DNA of 64,000 nucleotides from Klebsiella phage Magnus. The DNA is taken from the sequence record NC_049462.1, one strand, 5' to 3'. This document shows, in pieces, positions 18,946 through 47,788 of the stretch; positions within the stretch are counted from its first letter, which is position 1, and every line of letters begins with the position of its first letter. The translations under genes were made by a program, and so were the position numbers. A model generated the notes under the pieces. The model was given only the letters and a program-made list of their open reading frames with translations, did no database searches and was not told where the DNA came from.

Positions 18946-20841
18946 ATGGCAACTACAAGTTTCAGCGTTGCGCCGTCTGTACAGTGGACCGAGCGCGATG
19001 CCACGCTTCAGACGTCTCCGTCCGTTGTTGTTCAGGGCGCGTCTGCTGGTAAATTCCAATGGGGTGAAGTAGAATTACCCGTGTTGGTTACTAGCGGTGA
19101 GACTGGTCTGGTGAAGAAATTCTTCAAACCGAATGATGATACCGCGATCGACTTTCTGGTCATTGCTGACTTTATGTCGTATAGTTCTGCTGCATGGGTG
19201 ACCCGTATCGTCGGCCCTACTGCCAAGAACGCCGTGACTAAAGGTCAGAGCGCTATCCTCATCAAAAACAAACTGGACTTTGAGACCGCAAGTCCGTCGG
19301 CTTCTATCACCTGGACTGGTCGTTATCCCGGTTCTCTGGGCAACGATATCGCCGTTAACATCTGTGATGCAGCGTCATTCCCGACCTGGGAATTCCGTAA
19401 CAACTTTGCCTATGCTCCTCAGGCTGGCGAATTCCACGTTGTTATTGTGGACAAAGTTGGCCGTATCACCGATTCTTCCGGTGCTGTCGGTCAGGTAGAT
19501 CGTATTTCTATTTCTGGTACTGCTACCGCCGCTGGCGCCATTACAGTAGCAGGTGAATCTGTTGCATATCTGCAGACGGATACTCCAGCAACTCTGGCGG
19601 CTAAAATCGGCCTGGAGATGGAAGCGCTGACTGATGTTTATTCGAGCGTTGTTGTGAAATCGAATACCGTCATTCTGACCCACAAAGCTATCGGCCCGCA
19701 GCCCGTGACTGCCGTGGTTCCTGATGCTAATGGCCTGACTGGTACTGCGATCATCACCACTGTTGGCGCATCCGGTACGATCATCGAGAAATATGAACTG
19801 ATGCAGAATACCCAAGGCGCGAAAAAGTCTGATGGTGCTAATGCTTACTTCAAAGACGTGATCAACAACACTTCGAATTGGGTTTACACCTTCACTAATG
19901 CCCTGGCGGCAGGTGTAGTTGAACTCGAAGGTGGCGTTGATGATTACGACGTCAACCGTGTCGCTGCTATCGAAGCCCTGAACAACGCCGAAGCATACGA
20001 TGCTAAACCTGTGTTCGCATACTGTGAAGAACTGATCGAGCAGCAGGCTATCATCGACCTGTCGACTAACCGTAAAGACACAGTGTCCTTCGTGTCGCCG
20101 CTGCGTGATGTTGTAGTCGGCAACCGTGGTCGTGAAATGGATGATGTTGTGGCTTGGCGTGAAAGCCTGGTGCGCGATTCTTCCTATTTCTTTATGGATG
20201 ACAACTGGGCATACGTTTACGACAAGTACAACGACAAAATGCGCTGGATCCCGGCGTGTGGCGGTACTGCAGGTCTGTGGGCGCGTACTATTGAGATTGC
20301 TGGTATCTATAAGTCCCCGGCGTTCCATAACCGTGGCAAATACAACAATTACAACCGTATGGCGTGGTCTGCGTCTTCTGATGAACGTGCTGTGCTGTAT
20401 CGCAACCAGATCAACAGCATCGTCACCTTCTCCACAGAAGGCATCGTGTTGTACGGTGATAAGACTGGCCTGACCCGCCCGTCGGCGTTCGATCGCATTA
20501 ACGTGCGCGGCCTGTTCATCATGGCTGAACAAAACATCGCTGCCATCGCCAAATACTATCTTGGTGAAAACAACGATGCGTTCACTCGCAGCCTGTTTAG
20601 CAACGCCGTTCGTCCTTATATCCGCCAGCTGGCCAACATGGGCGCGATCTATGACGGTAAGGTCAAGTGCGACGAAGACAACAACCCGGCAGAAGTTATC
20701 GCGGCAAACCAGATGGTTGCTGGTATCTGGTTGAAACCGGAATACAGCATAAATTGGGTGTATCTTGACTTTGCTGCAGTTCGACCGGACATGGAGTTCA
20801 GCGAAATCGAATCTGGCGGCGGCATAGTCGCAGCGTCCTAA
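18946..20841 (+). CDS. 18: tail sheath protein gp18
   Basis: 'GKFQWGEVELPV' vs T4 'GKFQWGPAFQIK'. The C-terminal 'YGDKTGLTRPSAFDRINVRGLF' matches T4 'YGDKTATSVPSPFDRINVRRLF'. SD 'aggaa' precedes the ATG. Confidence 0.85.
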   Translation: MATTSFSVAPSVQWTERDATLQTSPSVVVQGASAGKFQWGEVELPVLVTSGETGLVKKFFKPNDDTAIDFLVIADFMSYSSAAWVTRIVGPTAKNAVTKGQSAILIKNKLDFETASPSASITWTGRYPGSLGNDIAVNICDAASFPTWEFRNNFAYAPQAGEFHVVIVDKVGRITDSSGAVGQVDRISISGTATAAGAITVAGESVAYLQTDTPATLAAKIGLEMEALTDVYSSVVVKSNTVILTHKAIGPQPVTAVVPDANGLTGTAIITTVGASGTIIEKYELMQNTQGAKKSDGANAYFKDVINNTSNWVYTFTNALAAGVVELEGGVDDYDVNRVAAIEALNNAEAYDAKPVFAYCEELIEQQAIIDLSTNRKDTVSFVSPLRDVVVGNRGREMDDVVAWRESLVRDSSYFFMDDNWAYVYDKYNDKMRWIPACGGTAGLWARTIEIAGIYKSPAFHNRGKYNNYNRMAWSASSDERAVLYRNQINSIVTFSTEGIVLYGDKTGLTRPSAFDRINVRGLFIMAEQNIAAIAKYYLGENNDAFTRSLFSNAVRPYIRQLANMGAIYDGKVKCDEDNNPAEVIAANQMVAGIWLKPEYSINWVYLDFAAVRPDMEFSEIESGGGIVAAS

Positions 20842-20852
20842 ATATAAGACAC

Positions 20853-20872
20853 ATGCCCTCTTCGGAGGGCAT
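20853..20872 (+). terminator. hairpin atgccctc-ttcg-gagggcat after gp18
   Basis: Perfect 8-bp stem. Weak U-tract. Confidence 0.35.
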
Positions 20873-20884
20873 TGAGGTATTGTT

Positions 20885-21187
20885 ATGAAAAGTTTTTCTC
20901 AATTTTTAGCAGAAGCGGGCCTAAAAGGTGACCTTCAGAAAGTTAAAGACTCCGTAATTGAGTGGTTGGAAGACCAAGATGTAAGACTCAAAAATGGGGA
21001 TATCGAAAATGGAGTATTTGGAGATTTCTTCCGCATAACCATTGATGATTTTGCATATACATATAATGGCAAAGAGATCAAAGTATTCGATCTGAAGAAA
21101 GATAAACAGGTTGTTAACAAAGCTGCTGGAACTCGAGAAGCCCCAGGTGAACTCGGTAAATTGTTTAAGAAATACAGCAAAGTGTAA
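20885..21187 (+). CDS. hypothetical protein (100 aa), AT-rich, part of the inserted cassette between genes 18 and 19
   Basis: ORF with SD 'gaggt'. Lower GC than the flanking structural genes. Confidence 0.4.
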   Translation: MKSFSQFLAEAGLKGDLQKVKDSVIEWLEDQDVRLKNGDIENGVFGDFFRITIDDFAYTYNGKEIKVFDLKKDKQVVNKAAGTREAPGELGKLFKKYSKV

Positions 21188-21190
21188 CAT

Positions 21191-21214
21191 ACCCCGCTTC
21201 GGCGGGGTTTTACT
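21191..21214 (+). terminator. terminator accccgc-ttcg-gcggggt + tttta
   Basis: GC stem plus T-run. Confidence 0.5.
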
Positions 21215-21250
21215 TCGGGGTAAATAATATCGGCAACCCGGAGATTTGAA

Positions 21251-21706
21251 ATGATATTTGCATACAAAATTGAAATGAATGCCAACAACATGGTCTATAT
21301 CGGTGTGACCAATGATCCGCAAAGGCGATATGAGCAACATTTGGCCAATGCATTTCAATATAATGTTGAAAGTGAATTGTATGATGCCATGCGCAAATAT
21401 GGGGCTTCTGCTTTTACTTTCGTGATTATTGCTCAAACCGATGAAGTCCACAAATGGGAATTGGAAAAGCAATTAATTGCTCAATATAATTCTTATGAAT
21501 TGGGCTACAACATGAATAAAGGCGGTAACGATGGAAGTCATCTGGTTGGTAAAGCTGCTGCTAAATTGACCTCCACTGGAGAACATATTGGTATGGTCTC
21601 ATTAATTGATCCACGTTGGGATCTCTGTGAGATTGAACCAGTACGGAACAATGTTGATCATGGCTTTGATCTCAGTAAATTGACGATCAAAAGATTAACA
21701 GACTAA
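21251..21706 (+). CDS. GIY-YIG homing endonuclease (free-standing, Seg-like)
   Basis: N-terminal 'FAYKIEMNANNMVYIGVTNDPQRRYEQH' carries GIY-YIG motifs A and B. 'ELGYNMNKGG' carries the conserved Asn. The gene is AT-rich and inserted between the conserved 18 and 19 genes. Confidence 0.7.
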   Translation: MIFAYKIEMNANNMVYIGVTNDPQRRYEQHLANAFQYNVESELYDAMRKYGASAFTFVIIAQTDEVHKWELEKQLIAQYNSYELGYNMNKGGNDGSHLVGKAAAKLTSTGEHIGMVSLIDPRWDLCEIEPVRNNVDHGFDLSKLTIKRLTD

Positions 21707-21740
21707 TTAGAATTGTGTAACTCTTTTTGGAGAATGTATA

Positions 21741-22274
21741 ATGGCTACAGTAAATGAATTTCGCGCGGCCATGTCACGTGGGGGCGGCGTTCAACGTCAG
21801 CACCGCTGGCGTGTGACTGTAAACTTCCCGGCATTCGTAGCGGGTTCTGACACCATTCGTGACGTATCTCTGTTGGCTGTAACAACCAACACCCCGACAG
21901 GCCAGCTGGGTGAGATTCTCGTTCCGTGGGGTGGCCGTGAACTGCCGTTCCCTGGCGACCGTCGTTTTGAGGCTCTGCCTGTAACGTTCATCAACGTTGT
22001 AGACAACGCCCCGTACAACGCATTTGAAATCTGGCAGCAGTATATCAACGGCAGCAACAACAACCGTGCGTCTGCTAACCCAGATGATTATTTCCGTGAC
22101 ATCATCATGGAACTGCTGGATGCTAACGACAACGTCACCAAGACCTGGACGCTGCAGGGCGGCTGGCCTCAGAACCTCGGTCAGCTGGAACTGGATATGT
22201 CTGCTATGGACTCCTATACTCAGTTCACTGTTGACCTGCGTTACTTCCAGGCCATTTCGGACAAGTCTCTCTAA
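21741..22274 (+). CDS. 19: tail tube protein gp19
   Basis: 'LQGGWPQNLGQLELDMS' vs T4 gp19 'IKGLWPTNVGELQLDWD'. Gene order is 18-(HEG)-19-20. Confidence 0.8.
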   Translation: MATVNEFRAAMSRGGGVQRQHRWRVTVNFPAFVAGSDTIRDVSLLAVTTNTPTGQLGEILVPWGGRELPFPGDRRFEALPVTFINVVDNAPYNAFEIWQQYINGSNNNRASANPDDYFRDIIMELLDANDNVTKTWTLQGGWPQNLGQLELDMSAMDSYTQFTVDLRYFQAISDKSL

Positions 22275-22283
22275 CGTTACACG

Positions 22284-22310
22284 TGGTGGGGGAATTTATT
22301 TCCCCACCAC
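22284..22310 (+). terminator. hairpin gtggtggggg-aatttatt-tccccaccac after gp19
   Basis: 10-bp inverted repeat. Confidence 0.4.
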
Positions 22311-22342
22311 TAATTACAAGAAAACGTTGAGGACATATAATC

Positions 22343-24025
22343 ATGGCATACGGCAAAGGTTTCTTTGGTCTGTTCAGCGGCGGCGGTTTAGTTGACGCCA
22401 AAGTTGACACGGACAAATATGTCCAGAGTCAAGAAGAGAAGCTGCTTTCAAAAGCGACTGTTGTAGCTCTGGACGACGCTCAGGATGGTTCAGTCATCCT
22501 CCAGGGCGGGGCCAACACTTACAATTATGTTGGTGTTGAGAGCGAGCTGCTTAATGTCAAACAGCTTGTTGAAGAATATCAGTCCATGGCTCAGCAGCCT
22601 GAAATCCGCAAAGCGGTGGACATCATTATTAACGACGTTGTCACCTGCGAAGAAGATGAAACGCCGGTTACTATCAATCTCGATAAAGTTGAAGGCATCA
22701 GTGAAGATTTGAAAGAACAAATCACAGAATGCTTCAAAGAGATTATGAATTTGCTGGACTTTGACGACACCGCGTATCAGAAGATTCGTAAATGGTATGT
22801 TGAAGGCCGTCAGGCATATCATGTTGTAACTGACCCAACCAAGCCGGGTAACGGCATTCAGAAGCTGGTCATGCTTGATTCTCGTTGCATCCGTCCAGTA
22901 TACGTCGTTGAGAAAACGATGCGAGAAGGCGGCATCGAGGCAATCGAAAAGGTCACTCTCAAGTATTACTACAATCCGAACTACAACCGCAACCAATTCA
23001 CTGGTCAATCTGGGACATCTCAGAACTTCCAGCCGTCTCAACAGGAACTGGTATTTGACGAAGAAAGTATCGTCTATGTTGATAGCGGTGAAGATCCTTT
23101 GGCAAATGGTGTTGTTCCCGGTCTGCTGAACCCTGCTATCCGTCCGCTCAACAACCTGGTTACGGTTGAGGATGCGACGGTAATTTACGCCATCACCCGT
23201 GCTCCAGAAAAACGTGCATTCTATCTGGACGTCGGTACTCTCGGTAAGAAATCTGCCGAAGAATACATGACTATGATGATGGGTAAATTCAAAAACCGTC
23301 TGGCATTCGACCGCAGTACTGGTAAGATTACGGGCAACAGCCATCTGATGGGGATTGCTGAGGACTACTGGTTGCCTCGTCGTGAAGGTCAGAACGCTAC
23401 TGAGATTTCAACAGTCGGTGGTGGCGACCAATTAGGACAGATGGACCACGTCAATTACTTCCTTGAAAAACTGTATAGCTCTCTGTTTATTCCAAAGAGT
23501 CGTATCCAGGAAGAAGGGAGCATCAATATTGGCGGTTCTAATTTGGCTGAGATCACCCAGGAAGAACTGCGGTTCAATAAATTCTGCGCAGGTTTGCGCC
23601 GTCGTTATTCTAAATTCTTCTCTGAATTTTTACGTCGTCAGTTAATTTTGAAAAAGATTACTGACGAACAAGATTGGGTTGAAAAAATTCAACCGTTTGT
23701 TACGTTTGAATTCACCTCAGACAGTTTTATCCGTGAACAGCAAGAAAATGAAATGCTTGCTGGTCGCCTCAGTGCCCTGACCGGGATTGAGCCTTATATC
23801 GGAACATTCTTCTCAATTGATTACGCGATGCGGAACATTATGCGTATGTCTGATGAAGAAATTAAGGCTCAGCAAGAGAAGATCAAAGAAGAAAAAGATA
23901 AAGGAATGTATCCGAAGGTTCAGGCTGATGAAAGCGGTGGGTTTAGTGGACAAGATGTTAGCCCGCTGAAATGGCGACCTGAAGTCGTACCTTTCCAGGG
24001 TACGCCCGGCGGAGTGGAAGAGTAA
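22343..24025 (+). CDS. 20: portal protein gp20
   Basis: 'ATVIYAITRAPEKRAFYLDVGTL...IAEDYWLPRREGQNATEIST' vs T4 gp20 '[23 protein letters not shown]...[20 protein letters not shown]'. The C-terminal 'MSDEEIKAQQEKIKEE' also matches. Confidence 0.85.
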   Translation: MAYGKGFFGLFSGGGLVDAKVDTDKYVQSQEEKLLSKATVVALDDAQDGSVILQGGANTYNYVGVESELLNVKQLVEEYQSMAQQPEIRKAVDIIINDVVTCEEDETPVTINLDKVEGISEDLKEQITECFKEIMNLLDFDDTAYQKIRKWYVEGRQAYHVVTDPTKPGNGIQKLVMLDSRCIRPVYVVEKTMREGGIEAIEKVTLKYYYNPNYNRNQFTGQSGTSQNFQPSQQELVFDEESIVYVDSGEDPLANGVVPGLLNPAIRPLNNLVTVEDATVIYAITRAPEKRAFYLDVGTLGKKSAEEYMTMMMGKFKNRLAFDRSTGKITGNSHLMGIAEDYWLPRREGQNATEISTVGGGDQLGQMDHVNYFLEKLYSSLFIPKSRIQEEGSINIGGSNLAEITQEELRFNKFCAGLRRRYSKFFSEFLRRQLILKKITDEQDWVEKIQPFVTFEFTSDSFIREQQENEMLAGRLSALTGIEPYIGTFFSIDYAMRNIMRMSDEEIKAQQEKIKEEKDKGMYPKVQADESGGFSGQDVSPLKWRPEVVPFQGTPGGVEE

Positions 24026-26135: not shown

Positions 26136-26229
26136 ATTTTGCAGCCACAGCCCTCTATAAAAGGGGGCTTGATTTTGAACGACTAAGTAATTTCAACTTA
26201 ACTGAATATCAATGTAAGGAATGAGCATC

Positions 26230-27552
26230 ATGGCTAAGAAACTTGTTACTGAACAAATGCGCGAAACGTGGCTGCCGGTTCTGAATGAAGAATCCAAATC
26301 TATTCAGCCGCTGTCTGCCGAAAACGTCGCGGTTCGCCTGCTGCAGAACCAGGCCGAATGGAACGCCAAAAACCTGGGCGAATCCGAAGCGCCGGGTTCT
26401 CTGAACACCACTGTCGGTAAATGGCAACCGGTTCTGATCGATATGGCAAAACGTCTGGCGCCGATCAACATCGCGATGGACTTCTTCGGCGTTCAGCCGC
26501 TGTCTGGTCCGGACGGTCAGATCTTCGCACTGCGTGCTCGCCAGGGCGTTGCTGACGGTTCTAATACCCAGCAGTCCCGTAAAGAACTGTTCATGCAGGA
26601 AGCCGATTCCGGTTATTCTGGTGACGGTACTGTACAGGCTGGTGACCCGTCTGGCTTCACCCAGGCTGAGATCGAAGGTTCCGGCGCTGGCACCACCACC
26701 ATCGGTAAAGGTATGCCGTCGACCGACGCTGAACTGCTGGGCTCTCCGTCCAATCCGTGGGCGCGTGTTGGTATCACCGTTCAAAAAGCGACCGTTACTG
26801 CGAAATCTCGCGGCCTGTACGCTGATTACAGCCACGAACTGCGCCAGGACATGATGGCGATCCACGGCGAAGACGTGGACAACATTCTGTCCGACGTGAT
26901 GGTAACTGAAATTCAGGCGGAAATGAACCGCGAATTCATCCGCACCATGAACTTCAGCGCAGTACGTTTCAAAAAATTCGGCACCAACGGTATCGTAGAC
27001 ATCGCTCAGGATATCTCCGGTCGTTGGGCGCTGGAAAAATGGAAATTCCTGACCTTCATCCTGGAAGTTGAAGCGAACGGTATCGGCGTTGACACCCGTC
27101 GTGGTAAAGGCAACCGTGTCCTGTGTTCCCCGAACGTAGCATCCGCGCTGGCAATGTCCGGCATGCTGGATTACGCTCCGGTTCTGCAGGAAAACACCAA
27201 GCTGGCGGTTGACCCGACTGGTCAGACCTTTGCGGGCGTTCTGTCCAACGGTATGCGCGTCTATATCGACCCGTATGCAGTAGCAGAATATATCACCCTG
27301 GCGTACAAAGGCGCAACTGCGCTGGATGCTGGTATCTTCTTCGCACCTTACGTGCCGCTGGAAATGTACCGCACCCAGGGTGAAAGCACCTTCGCACCGC
27401 GTATGGCGTTCAAAACCCGTTACGGCATCTGCGCGAACCCGTTCGTACAGATCCCGGCTACCCAAGACCCGCAGGTATACGTTACCTCCGACGGCATCGC
27501 CCAGGACAGTAACCCGTACTTCCGTAAAGGTCTCATCAAATCTCTGTTCTAA
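26230..27552 (+). CDS. 23: major capsid protein gp23
   Basis: 'FFGVQPLSGPDGQIFALRA' vs T4 gp23 'FDICGVQPMNSPTGQVFALRA'. 'DAGIFFAPYVPL' vs 'DAGIYYAPYVAL'. 'MAFKTRYGICANPF' vs 'MGFKTRYGIGINPF'. SD 'aagga' lies 9 nt before ATG 26230. Confidence 0.9.
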   Translation: MAKKLVTEQMRETWLPVLNEESKSIQPLSAENVAVRLLQNQAEWNAKNLGESEAPGSLNTTVGKWQPVLIDMAKRLAPINIAMDFFGVQPLSGPDGQIFALRARQGVADGSNTQQSRKELFMQEADSGYSGDGTVQAGDPSGFTQAEIEGSGAGTTTIGKGMPSTDAELLGSPSNPWARVGITVQKATVTAKSRGLYADYSHELRQDMMAIHGEDVDNILSDVMVTEIQAEMNREFIRTMNFSAVRFKKFGTNGIVDIAQDISGRWALEKWKFLTFILEVEANGIGVDTRRGKGNRVLCSPNVASALAMSGMLDYAPVLQENTKLAVDPTGQTFAGVLSNGMRVYIDPYAVAEYITLAYKGATALDAGIFFAPYVPLEMYRTQGESTFAPRMAFKTRYGICANPFVQIPATQDPQVYVTSDGIAQDSNPYFRKGLIKSLF

Positions 27553-27573
27553 TCGGACAGCTGATCTGAATCA

Positions 27574-27601
27574 AACCCCGCCATGTGCGGGGTTTTTATT
27601 T
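27574..27601 (+). terminator. strong rho-independent terminator (aaaccccgcc-atg-tgcggggttt + ttattt)
   Basis: Perfect GC stem plus U-run after gp23. Confidence 0.7.
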
Positions 27602-27625
27602 GCTCAAATTTATTTATTGAATCAC

Positions 27626-27654
27626 TTTACTTCTTCAATAACCTTCCTTATACT
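27626..27654 (+). promoter_or_regulatory. sigma70-type early promoter: -35 TTTACT, 17-bp spacer, -10 TATACT
   Basis: Read directly from the sequence. It belongs to a repeated 'cTTTACTtcttCAATAA' promoter family (copies at 30396, 52102, 54154). Confidence 0.55.
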
Positions 27655-27701
27655 TCAATCCATAGCAGTAATACACCAACTTGAAACGAAGGAACTACAC
27701 C

Positions 27702-28058
27702 ATGACTAAATCTGAAATCAACGCAATCCTGAAAGACCTCGGTTACGGCAGCATGAAGATGAGAGCAGGTCTGTATGAGACTCCTAAATGTGCTCGCAAC
27801 CGTCAGGGTAAAATGATCAAAGGCATTTGGTGTGGTGACGTAGGCCCAACCACGGTGACCTCTCCTCACCTGAACGGGTACGAAAAAGTCGTCCGCGAGT
27901 TCTGTAACAAAGTGTGTGGCCGGGTGGATGAGTCCCTGTCCACCCACGACTTGAAGGTAGTAGCATTTGGCGACAACCTGGTGTCATTCACCCTCAGCAG
28001 CTACCCATATGGTGGTGATTATGACCGCTACTACGCGATCGTGACAATCCGCAAATAA
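27702..28058 (+). CDS. hypothetical protein (118 aa; four Cys)
   Basis: ATG preceded by the conserved leader box 'TGAAACGAAGGAACTACA'. Confidence 0.5.
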   Translation: MTKSEINAILKDLGYGSMKMRAGLYETPKCARNRQGKMIKGIWCGDVGPTTVTSPHLNGYEKVVREFCNKVCGRVDESLSTHDLKVVAFGDNLVSFTLSSYPYGGDYDRYYAIVTIRK

Positions 28059-28062
28059 CCCA

Positions 28063-28087
28063 CCCCGCTCCGGCGGGGTTTTTCTTT
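28063..28087 (+). terminator. terminator ccccgc-tccg-gcgggg + tttttctttat
   Basis: GC stem plus U-run. Confidence 0.65.
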
Positions 28088-28138
28088 ATATGCCCTCCAG
28101 CTTATCATGATATGGTCTATCACTGAGGAAACCAAATC

Positions 28139-28474
28139 ATGAGTATTCAATTAACCATTTCTTCCCTGATTCCAGCGTTCGGTAGCAATCTGGAACAAAT
28201 CAATTTCATCCGTAAACGTCTGGAAGATGTGGCGTTCCAATTGGGGTATGTGGAACCTCCTCGGGAAGTAAAAGAAGCGGAGGATGTCGCATCGCCTTCC
28301 AACCTCATCGATGCGTATGATGAAATCGGACGTAAAACGAATGTTGCTATACAGCAAATCTTTGAATATCTGGGGTTCATAGAAAATGCGCTGGGGAATT
28401 CTTACCATCCCCAATCTGATTCGGCCAAGGAATTTGCTCCAACATCCATTGCTGGATCATCTAATGGTATTTAA
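28139..28474 (+). CDS. hypothetical protein (111 aa)
   Basis: ORF with SD 'gaggaa'. Confidence 0.45.
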   Translation: MSIQLTISSLIPAFGSNLEQINFIRKRLEDVAFQLGYVEPPREVKEAEDVASPSNLIDAYDEIGRKTNVAIQQIFEYLGFIENALGNSYHPQSDSAKEFAPTSIAGSSNGI

Positions 28475-28478
28475 AAGA

Positions 28479-28505
28479 AAGGGCGCTCTTGCGCCCTTTT
28501 ATTTG
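28479..28505 (+). terminator. terminator aagggcgc-tctt-gcgccctt + ttatttg
   Basis: Perfect 8-bp stem plus U-run. Confidence 0.65.
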
Positions 28506-28513
28506 GGGGGGAT

Positions 28514-28762
28514 ATGTACTCAAATATCTCAAACTCTGAAGCCCTGTCTTTGGCTAAACGATACCATTGCTTCAGGTCCCGCGCCGGGCATTCCTGGGAT
28601 AAAAAGGCTTGGATCAAGCAATTACAGTTACAAATAGAGATGATGGAATCTCTTTCCTCTCAGTGCGGAAATAACCCATTCGCCGCCCGTTGCCTTGAAC
28701 AGGAGTATGCAACTCTTAAAATGCAACTGAACACTGCGATGTCACACGTATTGCATTCTTAA
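28514..28762 (+). CDS. hypothetical protein (82 aa)
   Basis: ORF with SD 'gggggga'. Confidence 0.4.
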   Translation: MYSNISNSEALSLAKRYHCFRSRAGHSWDKKAWIKQLQLQIEMMESLSSQCGNNPFAARCLEQEYATLKMQLNTAMSHVLHS

Positions 28763-28820
28763 CTTTTCAATAACCAGATTTCAATTATTATTGCCCCACA
28801 AACCTAACGAGGAACAACTG

Positions 28821-29027
28821 ATGGCCCGTGAAGACAACTCTCAAATTTCTACCAACGCCAACTCAACCTTCAATGAGTGGCACAACACCCTTGAGCGCGT
28901 AGCGCGTTCTCAAGGCGGTTCAGCTGCTGACGCCGATGCCTGGCGTGAAGATTATGACAACGGCAAAACGCCGCGCCAGGCATGGGAAGACGAATGGGGA
29001 TGGGAAGATGCAGACACTAATTCGTAA
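28821..29027 (+). CDS. small acidic Trp-rich protein (68 aa)
   Basis: Internal Met 'MARED' preceded by 'acgaggaa'. Confidence 0.4.
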   Translation: MAREDNSQISTNANSTFNEWHNTLERVARSQGGSAADADAWREDYDNGKTPRQAWEDEWGWEDADTNS

Positions 29028-29049
29028 AATCTTTCTGGATAAAAAGGGA

Positions 29050-29238
29050 ATGGAATCAAAGGTCGAAATCATCACGACTCAAAAATTGTTTGAGAAAGGT
29101 GAAACTCGATACTATCTTAATGTGTTCCTTTACCTTCCAGAATGCAGCCTGAACCGCGATATTACCCAACCGGATGGAACTGTGGTCCGTTGGGAAATAG
29201 CCAAACAGGAAGATGTTGAAAGAGACATAACACTTTGA
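29050..29238 (+). CDS. hypothetical protein (62 aa)
   Basis: ATG with SD 'aaaaaggga'. Confidence 0.35.
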   Translation: MESKVEIITTQKLFEKGETRYYLNVFLYLPECSLNRDITQPDGTVVRWEIAKQEDVERDITL

Positions 29239-29253
29239 AGCGAGATCTATATC

Positions 29254-29691
29254 ATGACAAATAAATTCATTTTTCTGGACGTTCGCGGTAAACGATTCTT
29301 CAAAACTGATCTGGACGAAAAGACAGAAGGGTTCCAGGGGCGATTGTCATATTTGTTGCCGACAGGCGATATCGACACCCAAAGATATGTGGCGGATGTA
29401 CGGGATCTCCTGGATTGTGGTTGGGTTGAAATTCCTAACCCCCAGGTGTTGACCGTCAATCTGTATTACATGAAGGAAAGTGGGAAGTATTATTCCAATG
29501 GAGAACTCCACCTCCTTCGTTCTGAAGTCACTGCCGATCCAGCCAAGAGTTGGTACAATGCTAGAGAAACCGTCCGGAAGATGGTTGATGAAGGCAATTT
29601 GCCTGGCCTGGTATCTGGTTCTCGTTACGATGTGTTCATGTCCTGTGAAGAGCACCCTTGTTATGTGCCCACTTTGGTGAAGGTGAAATGA
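29254..29691 (+). CDS. hypothetical protein (145 aa)
   Basis: ORF. Confidence 0.5.
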   Translation: MTNKFIFLDVRGKRFFKTDLDEKTEGFQGRLSYLLPTGDIDTQRYVADVRDLLDCGWVEIPNPQVLTVNLYYMKESGKYYSNGELHLLRSEVTADPAKSWYNARETVRKMVDEGNLPGLVSGSRYDVFMSCEEHPCYVPTLVKVK

Positions 29692-30131
29692 TGAAAACTC
29701 TTGAACAAATTTTAGAAGGTCATAAATCAGGAACTTTGTCAGCGGCTTTAGACGGTCGCGATTTGTCCCGTCTGGCACAGTTCCTGACAGTTGAGCAAAT
29801 TGAAAGCCTGGGACTGTCTTTTAAATCTCCTGAAAAACGTGAATCCCATGTCCCGGTTGAATTCACCAAAGAAAATATCCTGAAACAACTGGAAAAGGAC
29901 GTCGCCTTTGGGTTTGAAAAGGCTCTGAATCGTCGTGGGATTAGTTCTAGCCTTATGTACGAAGTCGTACAAATGTGGAACTGTATCCTTGAAGAAGGTC
30001 TCGAAGATTTTGATTCGTATGCGATGTACGGCCTTCCTCTGTTTAAAGCAACTGCTGTCAAATACGGGTTTGACAACCCAATCGGTGATGACACAGGTGC
30101 TGAAGATTATTATGAAGAGCAGGGCTATTAA
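29688..30131 (+). CDS. hypothetical protein (147 aa)
   Basis: ATGA start/stop overlap with the upstream gene. Confidence 0.5.
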   Translation: MMKTLEQILEGHKSGTLSAALDGRDLSRLAQFLTVEQIESLGLSFKSPEKRESHVPVEFTKENILKQLEKDVAFGFEKALNRRGISSSLMYEVVQMWNCILEEGLEDFDSYAMYGLPLFKATAVKYGFDNPIGDDTGAEDYYEEQGY

Positions 30132-30132
30132 T

Positions 30133-30369
30133 ATGCGTATCAAAAAGATCGGATCCAGCCCGCTGACTGGTACTATCTTCTACGGCACCCTGGAGACCAA
30201 AACCAGCATGTGGGTAGGGGAAAAGGTTGATGTGACCAATGATTGTGTTGCGGCTACGGCTGAGCACATGCGTTGTGTTGGGAAGGATTATTGTTTCCCG
30301 ACTTTGGACGGTAAATTCTTGGTATTGTCAGCTGAAATTCACGATACCCTTCCGGACCGCTTCAAATAG
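30133..30369 (+). CDS. hypothetical protein (78 aa)
   Basis: ORF abutting the upstream stop codon. Confidence 0.4.
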   Translation: MRIKKIGSSPLTGTIFYGTLETKTSMWVGEKVDVTNDCVAATAEHMRCVGKDYCFPTLDGKFLVLSAEIHDTLPDRFK

Positions 30370-30395
30370 ATTTAAAAATAATTCAATAAACGGGG

Positions 30396-30423
30396 TTTAC
30401 TTCTTCAATAAACCCCGTATACT
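30396..30423 (+). promoter_or_regulatory. sigma70-type early promoter (-35 TTTACT, 16-bp spacer, -10 TATACT) embedded in the stem-loop acggggttt/aaaccccgt
   Basis: About 85% identical over roughly 75 nt to the 27621..27704 promoter-leader. The 9-bp inverted repeat brackets the -35 region. Confidence 0.55.
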
Positions 30424-30472
30424 TCATTTCATAAGCAGTACGACACCAACTCTGAAATGAAGGAACTACATT

Positions 30473-30724
30473 ATGGCACGTACAATCCACGATTTTAAAG
30501 ACTCCGATATCCTGACCTACGGTATGAACGGTCGCCTGGTAGTTCTGAACGACGGTGGTAGCGAAGAACGTTATAACACCACTCTGGTTTTCGAAAACAA
30601 AGTGATTTACTCCAACACCCGCGAAGGCATGAAACGTGCCCTGACCAACCCGAATTCTGGCCTGACCCGTTTGCTGCCTAAACAGTGCCATGCAGTTGCC
30701 CGCGCCCTGGCTGGCCGCTTCTAA
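30473..30724 (+). CDS. hypothetical protein (83 aa)
   Basis: Preceded by the leader box 'TGAAATGAAGGAACTACA'. Confidence 0.5.
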   Translation: MARTIHDFKDSDILTYGMNGRLVVLNDGGSEERYNTTLVFENKVIYSNTREGMKRALTNPNSGLTRLLPKQCHAVARALAGRF

Positions 30725-30734
30725 CCTAAATCTG

Positions 30735-30757
30735 AAGCCCCTCCGGGGGCTTACTTT
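30735..30757 (+). terminator. hairpin aagcccc-tccg-ggggctt
   Basis: Perfect 7-bp stem, followed by 'actttgaaacg'. Confidence 0.45.
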
Positions 30758-30776
30758 GAAACGAAGGAACTATATC

Positions 30777-31076
30777 ATGAACAATACACCAACTACTAAA
30801 ACCCCTCTGGCCATCGATCCTCGGTTTATCATTGAAGCAAAAGCGAACCAAATGGGTGCCTATGTGTACTCCCTGTATATCGGTGAAACATACGTTCTCT
30901 GTTTGGGTATAGACGGCGAGAAGAATGAGCGCGGTGTCCGTGAGCGTTATATCCCCAAAAACGCAGATGAAGATGCGACCAGATTTGCCAAGCACATCCT
31001 AGACCGCATTGCAGCGGGAAAGCCGTATAAAAACGGGGAAAGGGGATGGGCGACGGATCTGCTGAATAAAGCGTAA
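30777..31076 (+). CDS. hypothetical protein (99 aa)
   Basis: Preceded by the leader box 'TGAAACGAAGGAACTATA'. Confidence 0.5.
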   Translation: MNNTPTTKTPLAIDPRFIIEAKANQMGAYVYSLYIGETYVLCLGIDGEKNERGVRERYIPKNADEDATRFAKHILDRIAAGKPYKNGERGWATDLLNKA

Positions 31077-34042: not shown

Positions 34043-34507
34043 ATGGAAGTTAACAACACTCAATATCAAACGATGTCTATAGAGGACATCATGGCTGAAC
34101 TGGATCCACTGATTACGGTTGATCCGGCTGATCGTAATTTAGATCAGATTTCGTTGAAGATCGGGCGTTCCTTTATGACAGTGCAGCGGCATTACATTCG
34201 TGAAGGGCGTTATCTGGAATACCTGACTGGGCGGTTTAAACAGATTGATGTTTATCTGCGCAGGTATTATGCCGGGGAATTACCTGCGCAATCGTATCGC
34301 GAACGCCCTCTCAACAACAAACCACTGAAAACTGATCTGCCTCTATGGGTTCAGGCCGACGATATGTATATCGAGATGTCCGGGCTTCTACAAGAACAGA
34401 AAGCGAAGGTGAAATTCATCGAAAGTTGTTTGGATCGTTTGAACAAGCTGGGTTATGAAGTGAAGAATGCCATAGATTGGAGAAAATACATGGATGGCGG
34501 TTACTAA
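34043..34507 (+). CDS. possible UvsY-like recombination mediator (154 aa)
   Basis: Weak similarity to T4 UvsY ('LDRLNKLGYEVKNAIDWR' vs 'LDAIKSRGFAIKHIQDMR'). It lies upstream of uvsW as in T4. Confidence 0.35.
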   Translation: MEVNNTQYQTMSIEDIMAELDPLITVDPADRNLDQISLKIGRSFMTVQRHYIREGRYLEYLTGRFKQIDVYLRRYYAGELPAQSYRERPLNNKPLKTDLPLWVQADDMYIEMSGLLQEQKAKVKFIESCLDRLNKLGYEVKNAIDWRKYMDGGY

Positions 34508-39696: not shown

Positions 39697-40161
39697 ATGG
39701 CGCGCAATACGCTCGACATCTTAAAACTGACTGCGGTCGACGATGAGGCCAGCATCGTCGATTGTATGGTCGAAGTTGAACTGAACCAAGATAAACCAGG
39801 GATTTTCCTGGGTATCAAGGAAACACTGAGCCGAATCGGGGTTAATACTCGTCAAGAGCCTGAAACCCTGTACCAGACCTGCCATATCCTCCACAAATCT
39901 GGCAAGTATTTTATCGTTCATTTCAAGCATCTGTTTATGCTGGATGGACATTACAACGGCTTTCAGCGTGAAGATGTCCTGCGTATGAATCGAATCATTC
40001 GTCTTCTGGAGCAGTGGAAGATGATCAAGGTTCTGCATCCGGAACAAGTGACCGAATGCGCCGACATGTCCCGTATCAAAGTTGTGAAACACGATCAGAT
40101 CGCCGATTGGAAACTGGTCCCCAAATATATCATTCGCCCATCTCGGGCCAAAAGCGAATAA
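39697..40161 (+). CDS. regA: RegA translational repressor
   Basis: 'CHILHKSGKYFIVHFKHLFMLDG' vs T4 RegA 'CHILQKKGLYYIVHFKEMLRMDG'. 'WKLVPKYIIRP' vs 'WKLVPKYTIGN'. Confidence 0.75.
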   Translation: MARNTLDILKLTAVDDEASIVDCMVEVELNQDKPGIFLGIKETLSRIGVNTRQEPETLYQTCHILHKSGKYFIVHFKHLFMLDGHYNGFQREDVLRMNRIIRLLEQWKMIKVLHPEQVTECADMSRIKVVKHDQIADWKLVPKYIIRPSRAKSE

Positions 40162-42606: not shown

Positions 42607-42635
42607 GTTTTCAATAACTGTAATCGGGGTATATT
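42607..42635 (+). promoter_or_regulatory. putative sigma70 promoter (-35 TTTTCA then 'caataa', -10 TATATT) followed by hairpin gcgcc-tcaaccgg-ggcgc (42653..42670) and a leader box
   Basis: Shares the 'CAATAA' element next to the -35 with the TTTACT promoter family. Drives the 676-aa gene. Confidence 0.4.
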
Positions 42636-42700
42636 GACCTCACTTTAACGAAGCGCCTCAACCGGGGCGCACATTTGAACTGAAACAGGAAGACTATATC

Positions 42701-44731
42701 ATGTCAGATTTTAAACCCTTCGCAGTTGCTGTAAAGAATCAAATCACCGCGATGTCCAGCAATGGCCTGTACATGACTTCGGTTGACAAAGACGCCCTGT
42801 GGGATCTGTATCTGTCGTCTTTCCCGGAAGGCACCAACAACATCTACCGTGAGCGCACCGAGCACGATTGCACCTGCTGCAAGCAATTCATCCGTAATAT
42901 CGGCGGCGTCGTATCGATTGACGCTGATCTGAACCTGGTCACTGTGTGGGACAGTGTTAATCTGGGCAACGAATATGACGTGGTGGCAGCGGCGCTGGCC
43001 AAGTATGTCAAGCAGCACAATATCGTGGGCGTATACTTCAACGATTCGTCTAAAGTCGGCGTTGAAAGCAACCATGAAATGGGTGAAAACGGTAAAGTCC
43101 GCACCTACAACCATTTCCACGCAACGCTGGAAGGCAAATTTGTTCTCCGCGCCGATACTATCGCATCCAGAAAAGGTGAAATCTGGCAGTCGATTGAAGT
43201 CTTTGAGCGCGGGTTGCGTGAACTGACTCTGGAATCGGCTGAGATCGTACTGGAACTCATCGACCAGAACTCCCTGTATCGTGGCGAAGAGCATCGTGCT
43301 GCTATCCAGAGCTTTATCCAAAGCAAAAATGAATACGCACAAATTCCGTCGACTCTGAAACAACTCTGGGCTTGGCGTACTGGCTGGATGTCGAATAACC
43401 ATAAGCCGTTCGGCATCCGAAATAACGTCATCGGCACGTTATTAATCGATCTGTCTGGTGGCGTGGATCTGGAAAAGGCGGTTAAGTCATTTGAAACCAA
43501 AGTGGCACCGACCAACTACCGCCGCCCGACTGCTCTGGTGACTAAGGGTATGATCGAGCAAGCGCAGAAAAAAGTTGCTGAACTCGGCCTGACCGACTCG
43601 CTCGGACGCCGCTTTGCCACCTACGACGACCTGACCATCAACAACGTTCTGTTCGCTGATTTGGCTGCGCAGAAGGCGATGGATCCGTTTGCCCAGCTGG
43701 CTCAGGAAGTGAAAGTGTCGGAGAAATCCCTGGGTAAAATCGAAGAGATCAGTGCCGACGACTTTGTCAAAAACGTACTGCCGAAGGCGCATTCTATGGA
43801 AGTCCTCTTTGAGGGTTCCCATACTGGTAATCTGATGTCGTTGGTGGCACCGCAAACTGCAGGCGCACCTGGCCTCTTCAAATGGAATAACAACTTCTCC
43901 TGGTCATATAATGGTGAAGTTGCCGATTCCATCAAAGAGCGCGTGAAGGCCGCTGGCGGTAATGTGGATTCGTTCCTGCGTGTGTCTCTGGCCTGGTTCA
44001 ACAACGATGACCTGGACCTGCACATGTATACACCGCAGCGTGAACATATCTACTTCCACACTCGCGAATCCCGTTCTACGGGCGCCAAGCTGGACGTTGA
44101 TATGAACGGCATGGATGGTATCAACGCAGAACGCAAGCCCGTTGAGAACATCTTCTTCAGCGATGAAAGCAAGCTGAAAGACGGTGTGTATCAGTTCGTG
44201 GTGGACAATTATAACCAACGTGAAACTATCGACACCGGGTTTATCATCGAAGTCGAATACAAAGGTGATCTGAAGCGCTATTCCTGCGAAAAAGGTCTGA
44301 AGCAGAAACAGCAGTTCGCGGTAGTTGAACTTCATGTCAAAAATGGCAAAGTCGTTGACGTTCAGACTCCACTGACGCCGACTGCTGGCGTTGAGACTGA
44401 AGTATGGGGCATCCGTACACAGAACTTCCAGAAAGTGCAGCTGGTTCTGAACTCACCGAACCATTGGGATGGTGAACAGACAGGCAACCGCCACTTGTTC
44501 TTTATCCTGGAAGGCTGTGTGAACCCGGTCGGAACCCGCGGATTCTACAACGAATATCTGAAGCCGGAACTGGCACCGCATGGTAAGGTTTTTGAAATGC
44601 TTGGCGCTAAAATGAAAACAGCACCAAGTGATAACCAACTGAGCGGCCTGGGCTTCTCTTCCACTCAGCGCAACCATGTTCTGGTGAAGGTAAGTGGCTC
44701 GTTCAACCGTGTAGTCAAAGTCGTCTTTTAA
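42701..44731 (+). CDS. large conserved hypothetical protein (676 aa)
   Basis: Long ORF preceded by the leader box 'TGAAACAGGAAGACTATA'. No recognisable catalytic motif. Confidence 0.55.
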   Translation: MSDFKPFAVAVKNQITAMSSNGLYMTSVDKDALWDLYLSSFPEGTNNIYRERTEHDCTCCKQFIRNIGGVVSIDADLNLVTVWDSVNLGNEYDVVAAALAKYVKQHNIVGVYFNDSSKVGVESNHEMGENGKVRTYNHFHATLEGKFVLRADTIASRKGEIWQSIEVFERGLRELTLESAEIVLELIDQNSLYRGEEHRAAIQSFIQSKNEYAQIPSTLKQLWAWRTGWMSNNHKPFGIRNNVIGTLLIDLSGGVDLEKAVKSFETKVAPTNYRRPTALVTKGMIEQAQKKVAELGLTDSLGRRFATYDDLTINNVLFADLAAQKAMDPFAQLAQEVKVSEKSLGKIEEISADDFVKNVLPKAHSMEVLFEGSHTGNLMSLVAPQTAGAPGLFKWNNNFSWSYNGEVADSIKERVKAAGGNVDSFLRVSLAWFNNDDLDLHMYTPQREHIYFHTRESRSTGAKLDVDMNGMDGINAERKPVENIFFSDESKLKDGVYQFVVDNYNQRETIDTGFIIEVEYKGDLKRYSCEKGLKQKQQFAVVELHVKNGKVVDVQTPLTPTAGVETEVWGIRTQNFQKVQLVLNSPNHWDGEQTGNRHLFFILEGCVNPVGTRGFYNEYLKPELAPHGKVFEMLGAKMKTAPSDNQLSGLGFSSTQRNHVLVKVSGSFNRVVKVVF

Positions 44732-45138: not shown

Positions 45139-45161
45139 ATCCGTCAACTCCGGTATTAACA

Positions 45162-45186
45162 ACCCCGCCCTGTGCGGGGTTTCAAT
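45162..45186 (+). terminator. terminator aaccccgcc-ctg-tgcggggtt + tcaatttg (upstream copy of the duplicated terminator)
   Basis: GC stem plus T-rich tail. Near-identical to the terminators at 47789 and 27574. Confidence 0.6.
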
Positions 45187-45236
45187 TTGTGTATCGCAGT
45201 ATAATACATATGTAAACTAAACTATGGGGCTACGTT

Positions 45237-47740: not shown

Positions 47741-47788
47741 AGAACTGCAAGCCCTGCTGAATAGCCAGCTGCCTTCGGCGCGATAATG

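Follow-up and report, generated by a model that had tools for sequence, protein, structure and literature searches.

The window analysed here (the whole stretch of 64,000 nucleotides from Klebsiella phage Magnus, NC_049462.1) belongs to the genus Taipeivirus (Ackermannviridae) and is 99.3% identical to Klebsiella phage Madison. The Ackermannviridae are the sister family of the T4-like Straboviridae, and the phage lies outside the T4-type in the narrow sense. Downstream of the major capsid gene, and again further along the window, units made of a predicted promoter and a leader stand ahead of small ORFs, some of them followed by a terminator-like hairpin (Table 1).

Table 1. Promoter-leader cassettes, associated hairpins and neighbouring ORFs in the window. 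E values are from a profile made from five copies, three of which are window copies 1-3, so the scores of these copies are partly circular.
Feature	Position	Strand	Remarks
Terminator hairpin (predicted)	27573-27595	+	follows major capsid gene (26221-27552); -14.9 kcal/mol, z -3.0
Cassette copy 1	27588-27704	+	AT tract, promoter, unstructured leader, SD AAGGA 27689-27693; E 7.5e-24
Copy 1 promoter (predicted)	-35 27626-27631; -10 27649-27654	+	TTTACT; TATACT
118-aa ORF	27702-28058	+	behind copy 1; Madison gene 058 family, PHROG 13016
Terminator closing the gene-058 cassette (predicted)	28062-28079	+	-17.6 kcal/mol
Seven or eight small ORFs between copies 1 and 2	28139-30369	+	
Internal hairpin of small-ORF block	28478-28499	+	
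Weaker promoter-like site in small-ORF block	28764-28791	+	
Cassette copy 2	30365-30475	+	AT tract, GC stem, unstructured leader, SD 30460-30464; E 7e-27
Copy 2 promoter (predicted)	-35 30396-30401; -10 30418-30423	+	-10 TATACT
ORF Z, 83 aa	30473-30724	+	PHROG 16902
Terminator-like hairpin	30735-30752	+	stretch 30725-30790 folds at -16.1 kcal/mol, z -2.9
Leader-only partial copy	30753-30779	+	TTTGAAACGAAGGAACTATATC then ATG (TTGAAACGAAGGAACTATATCATG); E 0.0025
ORF X, 99 aa	30777-31076	+	PHROG 17538
Diverged member	42610-42703	+	promoter-like site with TTCAATAA, leader hairpin, leader 3' motif AGGAAGACTATATCATG
Cassette copy 3	52070-52184	+	-35 52102-52107; -10 TAATAT 52124-52129; SD, ATG; E 5e-21
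71-aa ORF	52182-52397	+	behind copy 3; PHROG 22629
Hairpin, then leader-only motif TTGAAACGCAGGATTCATATCATG	52640-52702 (motif 52678-52702)	+	E 6.6, weak
Short variant	54142-54182	+	TTATTGAA-TTCC-TTTACT-CAATAA ... TACTAT, the latter a weak -10

The promoter-leader repeat claimed in the original prediction is real: the profile search of the window recovered three full copies together with a partial one. TTTACTTCTTCAATAA matches exactly at 27626, 30396 and 52102 and, when up to three mismatches are allowed, at six sites where 0.75 would be expected, a number reached by 0 of 100 shuffles. Genome-wide, the same profile found five full copies and two weaker ones in Madison, and all matches in the window and in Madison lie on the coding strand with a small ORF immediately downstream. 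Each full copy consists of an AT tract, TTTACTTCTTCAATAA, TATACT or TAATAT, and a leader. In copies 1 and 2 the leader is about 45 nt long, ends in GAAGGAACTAYAYYATG and folds as unstructured (z = +0.9 and 0.0, respectively), whereas the leader of copy 3 contains a hairpin and ends in GAAGGTGCTATATTATG. The likeness between paralogues reaches into the promoter spacer and the leader. Between the -35 and the ATG, copies 1 and 2 share 84-85% identity over 76-82 nt, in agreement with the predicted 85% or so over about 75 nt; over the exact spans originally compared (27621-27704 and 30391-30475) identity is 68/86, or 79%. TTTACT and TATACT are present in both copies as predicted, and the spacer of 17 nt holds for copy 1 but is 16 nt in copy 2. 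The copies are homologous to one another, beyond chance likeness, and form a single family of promoter-leader cassettes of about 110 nt.

Secondary structures are placed differently from copy to copy. Copy 1 itself lacks a G/C stem-loop. The hairpin correctly noted ahead of it is the predicted terminator of the capsid gene, and the -35 of copy 1 is surrounded by an AT-rich inverted repeat (27614-27621/27634-27641) absent from the original prediction. The inverted repeat described in copy 2 is present and, as folded, pairs over 10 bp (arms 30390-30399/30409-30418), enclosing the -35 and abutting the -10. This stem folds at -14 kcal/mol (z = -5.3), and 0 of 200 shuffles fold equally well; its activity as a terminator is doubtful because the U-tract that follows is weak. 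The promoter reported at 52102 with a leader hairpin belongs to a full copy, the hairpin lying at 52140-52160. The site at 54154, also listed as a copy, turned out to be a variant shorter by 4 nt that lacks TCTT and scores a non-significant profile E value of 1.4. The diverged members at 42610-42703 and 52678-52702 had been overlooked, and the hairpin and motif at 52640-52702 are arranged like 30735-30779.

In related genomes, small accessory genes have been exchanged, gained or lost exactly where these near-identical units lie. The predicted coincidence of synteny breakpoints with the repeats is borne out in eight Taipeivirus genomes, where gene-content breakpoints fall at the leader/ATG or in flanking terminators, and the same is seen across genera. 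At copy 2, four arrangements occur: the promoter followed by X, by an unrelated ORF Y, or by Z, its hairpin and a second leader and then either X or Y. Z is carried by the window, KP6 and cp16, and missing in Madison, Menlow, Bestiario, KpnM-20, K751 and PWKp5; the hairpin behind it travels with it. The leader repeat stands on both sides of this insertion (the 83-aa gene plus the hairpin, 30476-30752), its right direct repeat being the leader-only copy that the first reading of the sequence had missed. The two repeats match at only 20 of 23 nt, a short stretch for recombination by homology. In K751, PWKp5, KP6 and cp16, ORF Y (140 aa) substitutes for X from ATG to stop. X alternates behind the same leader with Y, and either gene is found in phages of Klebsiella as well as of Salmonella: X in 19 + 34 records and Y in 23 + 29, at a single place per record. 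Another difference between the window and Madison is a GIY-YIG-like ORF.

The unit behind the capsid gene varies as a whole. Among relatives, the gene-058 unit (promoter, gene and terminator) is present, absent or replaced at this position, with junctions within GCGGGGTTTTT: compared with KpnM-20, the left junction is the 3' half of the capsid-gene hairpin with its T-run (GCGGGGTTTTT), and the right junction falls between CGGGGTTTTT and CTTTAT at the closing terminator. Phage maane carries the complete unit elsewhere, between its sheath and tube genes in the tail region, with identical 26-nt terminator repeats on both flanks. A third locus is occupied in L108, in which a distant gene-058 homologue (about 29% amino-acid identity, the value in phage barely, a 157,920 bp record as is L108) follows the copy found at 98.6 kb in Madison, and the 3' part of the leader there matches copy 1. 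Across 20 genomes, five unrelated ORF types stand behind this 98.6-kb copy and do not track the promoter subtype; its hairpin shows a compensatory change (GGGGC/GCCCC versus GGGAC/GTCCC) and seven different loops. In KP6, Bestiario, cp16 and LIMEstone1 the post-capsid slot holds homing endonuclease genes; endonuclease-driven replacement accounts for part of the variation.

No meaning could be shown for the idea that copies 1 and 2 frame the small early genes. None of the relatives examined lacks the entire 27.6-30.4 kb block, so they show no sign of recombination between copies 1 and 2. Within the block, Menlow and others carry an additional 81-aa gene at 28126-28142, with SD-ATG microhomology at its borders.

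The cassettes are extremely conserved. The orthologues of copy 2 in Vi01, JN03 and LIMEstone1 are 90-91% identical to it, compared with 86% for the capsid gene and 51-75% for the upstream ORF, and a 48-nt core shows no difference among all three genera. Cassette matches were found at 760 places in 279 records of the phage collection. The promoter matches the T4/PST PeSL consensus TTTACW-N17-TAYWAT (PMC4122927), and late genes in this phage carry CTAAATA instead. In LIMEstone1, the orthologue of copy 2 is annotated as a 'putative early promoter' (-35 GTTTAC, -10 TATACT). The searched literature holds no data on transcription starts or timing for any Ackermannviridae.

We propose that these elements are probably promoter-leader cassettes for small accessory genes that double as homology patches for recombination. 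In these, an AT-rich, UP-like tract is followed by a predicted promoter of T4-early/sigma-70 type (TTTACT, a spacer with TCTTCAATAA, and TATACT, TATAAT or TAATAT as the -10) and by a leader with an AAGGA SD and the start codon; usually a G/C-rich stem-loop overlaps or adjoins the promoter, and in copy 3 the hairpin lies within the leader. Right after infection, host RNA polymerase would use the promoter, and the leader would ensure efficient translation of the small gene; the stem-loop or a flanking terminator may insulate the unit from neighbouring transcription, which is late here. Because each genome has the same sequence at five or more loci, with hardly any change throughout the family, we infer that the cassette could also serve as a homology patch for UvsX/UvsY-type recombination by the phage itself; the Madison annotation includes exonucleases as well as RecA-like and UvsY-like proteins. 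Accessory ORFs would be exchanged, inserted or deleted with a left junction at the leader/ATG and a right junction either at a terminator or at the conserved intergenic sequence that comes next, and entire promoter-ORF-terminator units may relocate between loci.

It is rather unlikely that the copies act solely as strong and conserved early promoters whose 5' UTR is optimised, kept alike by functional constraint and without a special part in recombination. Turnover would then come from homing endonucleases and from ordinary recombination, illegitimate or at microhomologies, with selection filtering the outcome. Such a reading accommodates the conservation across genera, which fits purifying selection on expression signals, the endonuclease genes in the post-capsid slot of several relatives and the GIY-YIG-like ORF behind another difference, as well as the indel at 28126-28142, bordered by generic SD-ATG microhomology alone. 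Breakpoints also have to be intergenic anyway: cassettes and terminators make up roughly 40% of the intergenic sequence of the 6.6-kb region (a rough estimate) and selection already restricts viable indels to intergenic DNA, so that the overlap of breakpoints with cassettes has no significance by itself. The duplicated leader around Z rather argues against promoters alone, as do the joining of one ORF to various leader variants and of one leader variant to various ORFs, the displaced gene-058 unit in maane with its duplicated end terminators and the distant homologue at a third locus, and the conservation among paralogues of spacer and leader positions beyond the needs of any promoter model.

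The leader might instead be conserved as a putative operator of a phage post-transcriptional regulator, especially through its unstructured SD-AUG spacer ACUAYAYYAUG; we consider this unlikely, and it could coexist with a role in recombination. The obvious candidate, which would jointly shut off translation of early messages, is a RegA homologue (39697-40161; PF01818, E 4.8e-33) encoded right behind the clamp-loader genes in a T4-like order. Sites of T4 and RB69 RegA are unstructured and A+U-rich and lie between SD and AUG or over the AUG (PMC3014915). The leaders of copies 1 and 2 are unstructured as well, and AGGA-N1-3-CTAYAYYATG recurs at the starts of four genes in the window and of six in Madison; there both strands were searched and all occurrences lay on the + strand. 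An operator would explain the conservation of the leader but neither that of the promoter spacer nor the positions of the indel junctions, and the motif is not closely similar to the T4 SELEX consensus AAAAUUGUUAUGUAA. That the hairpins are sites for a dedicated site-specific recombinase, like integron attC, a possibility put forward for PeSLs by Arbiol et al. (PMC2839356), is highly improbable: G/C-rich stem-loops do lie at or close to many junctions, but the junctions vary (ATG, leader, terminator T-run) with no single defined site, and the annotation of the complete Madison genome lists neither an integrase nor any site-specific recombinase.

The cassettes resemble several known systems. 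Morons of lambdoid and other phages, reportedly described by Juhala and colleagues in 2000 and by Hendrix and colleagues, are like the gene-058 unit, which combines promoter, ORF and terminator between two late-operon genes, is present or absent between relatives and differs in locus by genome. Morons are thought to enter by non-homologous events, without conserved flanking linkers, and are typical of temperate phages, in which they are expressed from the prophage; here, in contrast, repeated terminator or leader sequences form the ends of the unit, in a virulent phage. The moron concept is discussed in PMC2839356. At the T4 internal-protein locus (Repoila et al. 1994, as cited in PMC4122927), unrelated small genes likewise alternate between conserved flanking regulatory sequences; that locus is a single one with encapsidated products, whereas one promoter-leader family serves several loci here. 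In Dickeya phage LIMEstone1 (NC_019925), five early promoters were counted (PMC3296691), among them the copy 2 orthologue; the annotation is limited to two hexamers and leaves the conserved leader, stem-loop, paralogy and gene swapping unmentioned.

The closest parallel, as the original prediction held and as anatomy and genome comparison now support, is the PeSL cassettes of the T4-like phages RB49/phi1, T4/PST and KVP40/nt-1 (Arbiol et al. 2010, PMC2839356; Comeau et al. 2014, PMC4122927), all of whose listed sequence features are found in this family; in the searched literature, no such swappable cassettes are described for Ackermannviridae. Shared are the AT tract, the sigma-70-like promoter with a -35 of T4/PST type (TTTACW), a G/C stem-loop in variable register, SD and ATG, about 100 conserved nt, a position ahead of small ORFs of unknown function with several copies per genome, and a T4-type recombination system in the phage. 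In both cases the elements also mark the limits of the indels and replacements that separate close relatives, and crossovers fall between the -10 and ATG. The cassettes here differ in belonging to Ackermannviridae rather than Straboviridae, in number (about five full copies and a handful of diverged ones versus dozens, a density far below that of RB49/phi1), in a conserved part that takes in a long leader nearly invariant across genera, and in the location of several copies within late structural operons instead of dedicated hyperplastic regions.

The window carries three copies of a promoter-leader cassette (copies 1 to 3) and a leader-only partial copy. Copies 1 and 2 lie directly 3' of the major capsid gene, on the same strand and within the late structural module (portal, prohead protease, scaffold and capsid genes upstream, tail completion and uvsY-like genes downstream). 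The complete genome of Klebsiella phage Madison (PQ368523) is a 99.3% match to the window, and other genomes of the genus Taipeivirus (Ackermannviridae, assigned to the order Pantevenvirales in one record) match it at 93-98%. Between the -35 and the ATG, copies 1 and 2 share 84-85% identity, which confirms the original prediction of a duplicated promoter-leader of about 85% identity; across the exact spans first predicted they share 79%. TTTACTTCTTCAATAA has three exact matches in the window and, with up to three mismatches, six matches against 0.75 expected, a number reached in none of 100 shuffles. A profile recovers the three full copies at E 1e-21 to 1e-27 (scores that are partly circular, since these copies were among the five used to build it) and the partial copy at 30749-30779 with E 0.0025. 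Of two further copies that had been predicted, the one at 52102 is thus a full copy and one of the three exact sites returned by the motif search, but the one at 54154 is a variant shorter by 4 nt with a profile E-value of 1.4. The shuffle counts and E-values rule out chance as the origin of the repeat, and paralogy of the downstream proteins was rejected as well: gene 058 (behind copy 1), ORFs Z and X (behind copy 2 and the partial copy) and a 71-aa ORF are unrelated and belong to different PHROGs. Matches resembling the -35 at 19872 and 4607 lie inside coding sequence and are not significant.

Coordinates of the cassettes and associated features in the window and in Madison
Feature	Genome	Position	Remark
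Major capsid gene	Window	26221-27552	
Capsid-gene terminator	Window	27573-27595	
Copy 1	Window	27588-27704	TTTACT-17-TATACT
Gene-058 unit	Window	27596-28079	Promoter, gene, terminator
Gene 058	Window	27702-28058	118 aa
Copy 2	Window	30365-30475	TTTACT-16-TATACT
ORF Z	Window	30473-30724	83 aa
Insertion relative to Madison	Window	30476-30752	277 nt
Partial copy	Window	30753-30779	Leader only
ORF X	Window	30777-31076	99 aa
Copy 3	Window	52070-52184	TTTACT-16-TAATAT
Exact TTTACTTCTTCAATAA matches	Window	27626, 30396, 52102	
Full copies	Madison	14986, 58417, 61194, 83217, 98561	
Weaker copies	Madison	105654, 112921	
TTCAATAA sites	Window	27614-27641, 30382-30411, 54142-54165, 28766, 42610, 57710	
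TTCAATAA sites	Madison	4494, 6891, 11095, 19566, 23690, 147797	
CTAAATA ahead of late genes	Window	5838, 14641, 18897, 20838, 24037, 25240, 35250	
RegA-family repressor	Window	39697-40161	PF01818, E 4.8e-33
Ribose-phosphate pyrophosphokinase	Window	45237-46091	
Nicotinate phosphoribosyltransferase	Window	46088-47740	
33-nt direct repeat	Window	45102-45134, 47729-47761	97% identity
Regions of repeat and terminator at this pair	Window	45094-45194, 47721-47822	
Tailspike difference	Window	6090-8081	About 2 kb; 1.7 kb in Madison
In-gene insertion	Window	51267-51320	54 nt
GIY-YIG-like ORF	Madison	65027-65743	717 nt; without it, window 34499-34506

The Madison genome holds five full and two weaker copies, with small ORFs downstream of all seven, and the leader 3' motif AGGA-N1-3-CTAYAYYATG marks the starts of four genes in the window and of six in Madison. 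Each genome has 5 full and about 4-6 diverged cassettes, far below the number in RB49/phi1. The ORFs downstream are all of unknown function, and several cassettes sit inside late-gene modules.

The anatomy of the cassette matches, feature by feature, the published definition of the promoter-early stem-loops (PeSLs) of T4-like phages (Arbiol 2010, PMC2839356; Comeau 2014, PMC4122927). Each copy has -35 and -10 hexamers, recognized at the sequence level only, and an AT-rich tract lies upstream of the -35 (AAATTTATTTATTGAA in copy 1; TTTAAAAATAATTCAATAAA in copy 2, where it begins 4 nt past the upstream stop codon). The G/C-rich stem-loop is found around the -35 of copy 2 (-14 kcal/mol, z -5.3), where an inverted repeat had been predicted, and after the -10 of copy 3. 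In the Madison copy at 98.6 kb it abuts the -35, and among 20 genomes the stem is kept by compensatory change (GGGGC/GCCCC vs GGGAC/GTCCC) around seven different loops. Copy 1 itself has no more than an AT-rich inverted repeat; 30 nt upstream stands the capsid-gene terminator, which accounts for the hairpin predicted ahead of this copy. The 3' end consists of a Shine-Dalgarno sequence (SD) and a start codon, GAAGGAACTAYAYYATG in copies 1, 2 and the partial copy and GAAGGTGCTATATTATG in copy 3. A riboswitch or other structured RNA in the leader was rejected: the leaders of copies 1 and 2 (z 0.0 and +0.9) fold no better than shuffles, and an Rfam search gave no family match, with two sub-threshold chance matches over the capsid terminator.

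By its hexamers the cassette promoter is predicted to be of the sigma-70/T4-early type; the PeSL consensus for T4/PST is TTTACW-N17-TAYWAT (PMC4122927). A late promoter of the T4 type was discarded, TATAAATA having only five sites in 64 kb and none near the cassettes. CTAAATA occurs at seven positions in the window, 20-40 nt ahead of the starts of late structural genes, and is likely the late-promoter motif of Ackermannviridae, a shortened form of T4's TATAAATA. The orthologue of copy 2 in Dickeya phage LIMEstone1 bears the annotation 'putative early promoter', its promoter hexamers being part of that existing annotation; the five early promoters per genome reported for LIMEstone1 (PMC3296691) agree with the five full copies found here. 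According to the CBA120 paper, early promoters were not identifiable by informatics, and MotA, AsiA, Alt and ModA are absent from the family (PMC3184105). Transcription from the cassettes is predicted to be early; the literature searched held no transcription-start or transcriptome study of Ackermannviridae. The two ORFs directly behind cassettes (27700-28050 and 30470-30720) have a G+C content of about 0.50-0.51. This exceeds the 0.43-0.47 of the small-ORF block that separates them and comes nearer to the 0.55-0.58 of the capsid gene, which is compatible with high-expression codon usage or a different origin.

A 109-nt query across copy 2 found 760 places in 279 phage records, all of them from Ackermannviridae or close to that family. 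Vi01, JN03 and LIMEstone1 carry counterparts of the 103-nt non-coding cassette at 90-91% identity, where the upstream ORF reaches 75, 75 and 51% and the capsid gene 86%, and a 48-nt core (ATTCAATAAACGGGGTTTACTTCTTCAATAAACCCCGTATACTTCATT) is identical across Taipeivirus, Kuttervirus and Limestonevirus. An exact 16-mer scan of IMG/VR gave mostly chance matches in unrelated contigs, the useful ones being isolate genomes of ~155-160 kb; a longer hairpin-anchored pattern was effective. A non-exclusive alternative to the linker function proposed below is that the strong conservation of the leader could be due to a RegA-family translational repressor. One is encoded in the window, directly after the clamp-loader genes as in T4, and the RegA sites of T4 and RB69 are unstructured stretches located between SD and AUG (PMC3014915). 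In Madison this RegA homologue is annotated as a hypothetical protein.

The short motif TTCAATAA is over-represented (10 on the + strand of the window vs 1.9 expected; 19 vs 4.7 in Madison). Inverted (TTATTGAA..TTCAATAA) or direct repeats of the motif flank the -35, and other sigma-70-like promoters have it after their -35. In the leftward early region of Madison, several of these promoters place the -10 within the loop of a G/C hairpin, the classic PeSL geometry. TTCAATAA may serve for binding or extend the promoter.

The gene content behind the cassettes varies among close relatives. The window, compared at all positions outside 19065-22999 (3.9 kb), shows four gene-level differences from Madison: a tailspike swap, a GIY-YIG-like ORF found in Madison only, a 54-nt in-gene indel and a 277-nt insertion. 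The unalignable part of the tailspike gene is a receptor-binding-domain swap, as is usual in Ackermannviridae. The GIY-YIG-like ORF, between the uvsY-like and exonuclease genes, is probably a homing-endonuclease indel. The 54-nt insertion lies inside the large ORF that precedes the acyl carrier protein gene, and a 6-nt alignment overlap suggests a short in-frame repeat expansion. The 277-nt insertion contains ORF Z and a hairpin and has the leader repeat on both sides: the single leader of Madison aligns with window 30449-30475 as well as with 30753-30779; this repeat-insert-repeat layout would be the expected product of circle integration through ~25-nt leader homology.

Across eight Taipeivirus genomes the slot behind copy 2 takes four states. 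The promoter-leader is followed by X in Madison, Menlow, Bestiario and KpnM-20 and by Y, a 140-aa ORF, in K751 and PWKp5; Z, a hairpin and the partial leader are interposed before X in the window and before Y in KP6 and cp16. The X, Y and Z proteins are unrelated, and the swaps begin at the ATG and stop at the stop codon. The same leader precedes X in the Kuttervirus phages JN03 and Se-J (68% amino acid identity) and Y in Vi01 (48%), an unrelated ORF in LIMEstone1 and, in a metagenomic genome (L048), an ORF whose N-terminus resembles Y. In the phage collection X occurs in 19 Klebsiella and 34 Salmonella records and Y in 23 Klebsiella, 29 Salmonella and 9 Escherichia records, always at one place per record, a distribution consistent with alternative occupants of a single slot. 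Synteny breakpoints coincide with the repeats, as the original prediction demanded, in the eight Taipeivirus genomes and across genera. Such coincidence alone is weak evidence, because cassettes and terminators fill around 40% (a rough estimate) of the local intergenic DNA; once conditioned on intergenic space the test was judged uninformative, and we left it out of the evidence. The 27.6-30.4 kb interval, which copies 1 and 2 had been proposed to frame, bears no sign of recombination between them.

The slot behind the capsid gene is empty in KpnM-20, holds the gene-058 unit in the window and four other genomes, and holds a homing endonuclease gene in KP6, Bestiario and cp16, so that homing endonucleases account for part of the variation among these three states. 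The junctions fall inside the terminator sequence GCGGGGTTTTT; at a further indel (28126-28142) SD-ATG microhomology is the only boundary. Salmonella phage maane carries a 52%-identical gene-058 homologue with a complete promoter-leader between its genes for tail sheath and tail tube, with identical CCCCGCTTCGGCGGGGTTTTTATTTG terminators (26-nt repeats) on either side; the promoter-ORF-terminator unit therefore occurs at two genomic loci. At a third locus, more distant homologues (about 29-35% amino acid identity) lie behind a related copy, the 98.6-kb one, in two genomes (L108 and L147), and the leader of that copy in L108 and MK-13 shares its 3' part (ACACCAACTTGAAACGAAGGAACTA) exactly with copy 1. 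Behind the 98.6-kb copy, 20 genomes hold five unrelated ORF types, incongruent with promoter subtype, the same ORF being joined to two leader variants. In Serratia phage 3M a Madison-120-type gene stands instead behind the copy near the DNA polymerase gene.

Straboviridae, too, have members of the protein families of Z and gene 058. Citrobacter phage Miller (Straboviridae, L156) has a Z homologue between terminators at 1395-1860, which shares with the next gene its own repeated leader, ACACACATCGAAACGAAACA..AAAGGAAC, partly like the Ackermannviridae GAAACGAAGGAAC. Elsewhere in the window, the gene pair for NAD salvage, ribose-phosphate pyrophosphokinase and nicotinate phosphoribosyltransferase, is bracketed by a 33-nt direct repeat and by similar terminators, which also resemble the capsid-gene terminator; the second repeat is what remains of the 3' end of ORF 44767-45138. 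The pair appears to be a further module that entered by recombination at a terminator.

We read the cassettes as probable PeSL-like early promoter-leaders whose primary role would be as expression signals and whose secondary role as recombination linkers, because their anatomy and comparative pattern match those of the PeSL papers, and because of the layout around Z, the moron-like gene-058 unit, the RecA-like and UvsY-like proteins encoded by the phage and the lack of an annotated integrase in the complete Madison genome. It is tempting to go further, though we consider the combined proposal rather unlikely: the near-invariant promoter-leader might be a family-wide docking port, integron-like but without integrase, so that any ORF acquiring it could be exchanged ORF-precisely between loci and Ackermannviridae genera by phage homologous recombination, with the TTCAATAA repeats and the SD-AUG spacer as operators that switch off the whole set, for example via the RegA homologue.

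Early transcription in Ackermannviridae is poorly understood, and the cassettes offer concrete candidate early promoters and 5' UTRs. They also provide an unusually clean case of unrelated alternative genes behind one leader, in Klebsiella and Salmonella phages alike; no description of a conserved leader or of ORF-precise swapping in Ackermannviridae was found in the literature searched. If we read them rightly, the PeSL idea of regulatory cassettes as recombination linkers extends to a second family of large virulent phages. The cassettes further single out a few accessory genes of unknown function, presumably strongly expressed, as candidates for host takeover or anti-defence. Their slots may be natural permissive, self-expressing insertion sites for engineering therapeutic or reporter Ackermannviridae, and NanoLuc reporters have already been placed after the capsid gene (PMC9965104).

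Among known systems, integrons have an integrase and one defined recombination site per cassette, whereas no integrase is annotated in Madison and the junctions here are heterogeneous, so that integron-type cassettes were rejected. The gene-058 unit resembles a moron in being an autonomous transcription unit of promoter, gene and terminator within a late operon, present or absent between conserved genes; unlike morons, which have no conserved flanking linkers and belong to a temperate context, it ends in repeated terminators (GCGGGGTTTTT, or the 26-nt repeats in maane) and would behave like a moron delimited by them. As for PeSLs, promoter, AT tract, stem-loop, SD-ATG end and element-bounded gene changes can all be recognized in the nucleotide sequence, and indels and replacements among close relatives are bounded by cassettes here too. 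In the literature searched, PeSLs are confined to T4-like myoviruses (Straboviridae), none being found for Ackermannviridae, the family of this Taipeivirus. We therefore file the cassettes as PeSL-like elements of a sister family rather than as one of the described sets.
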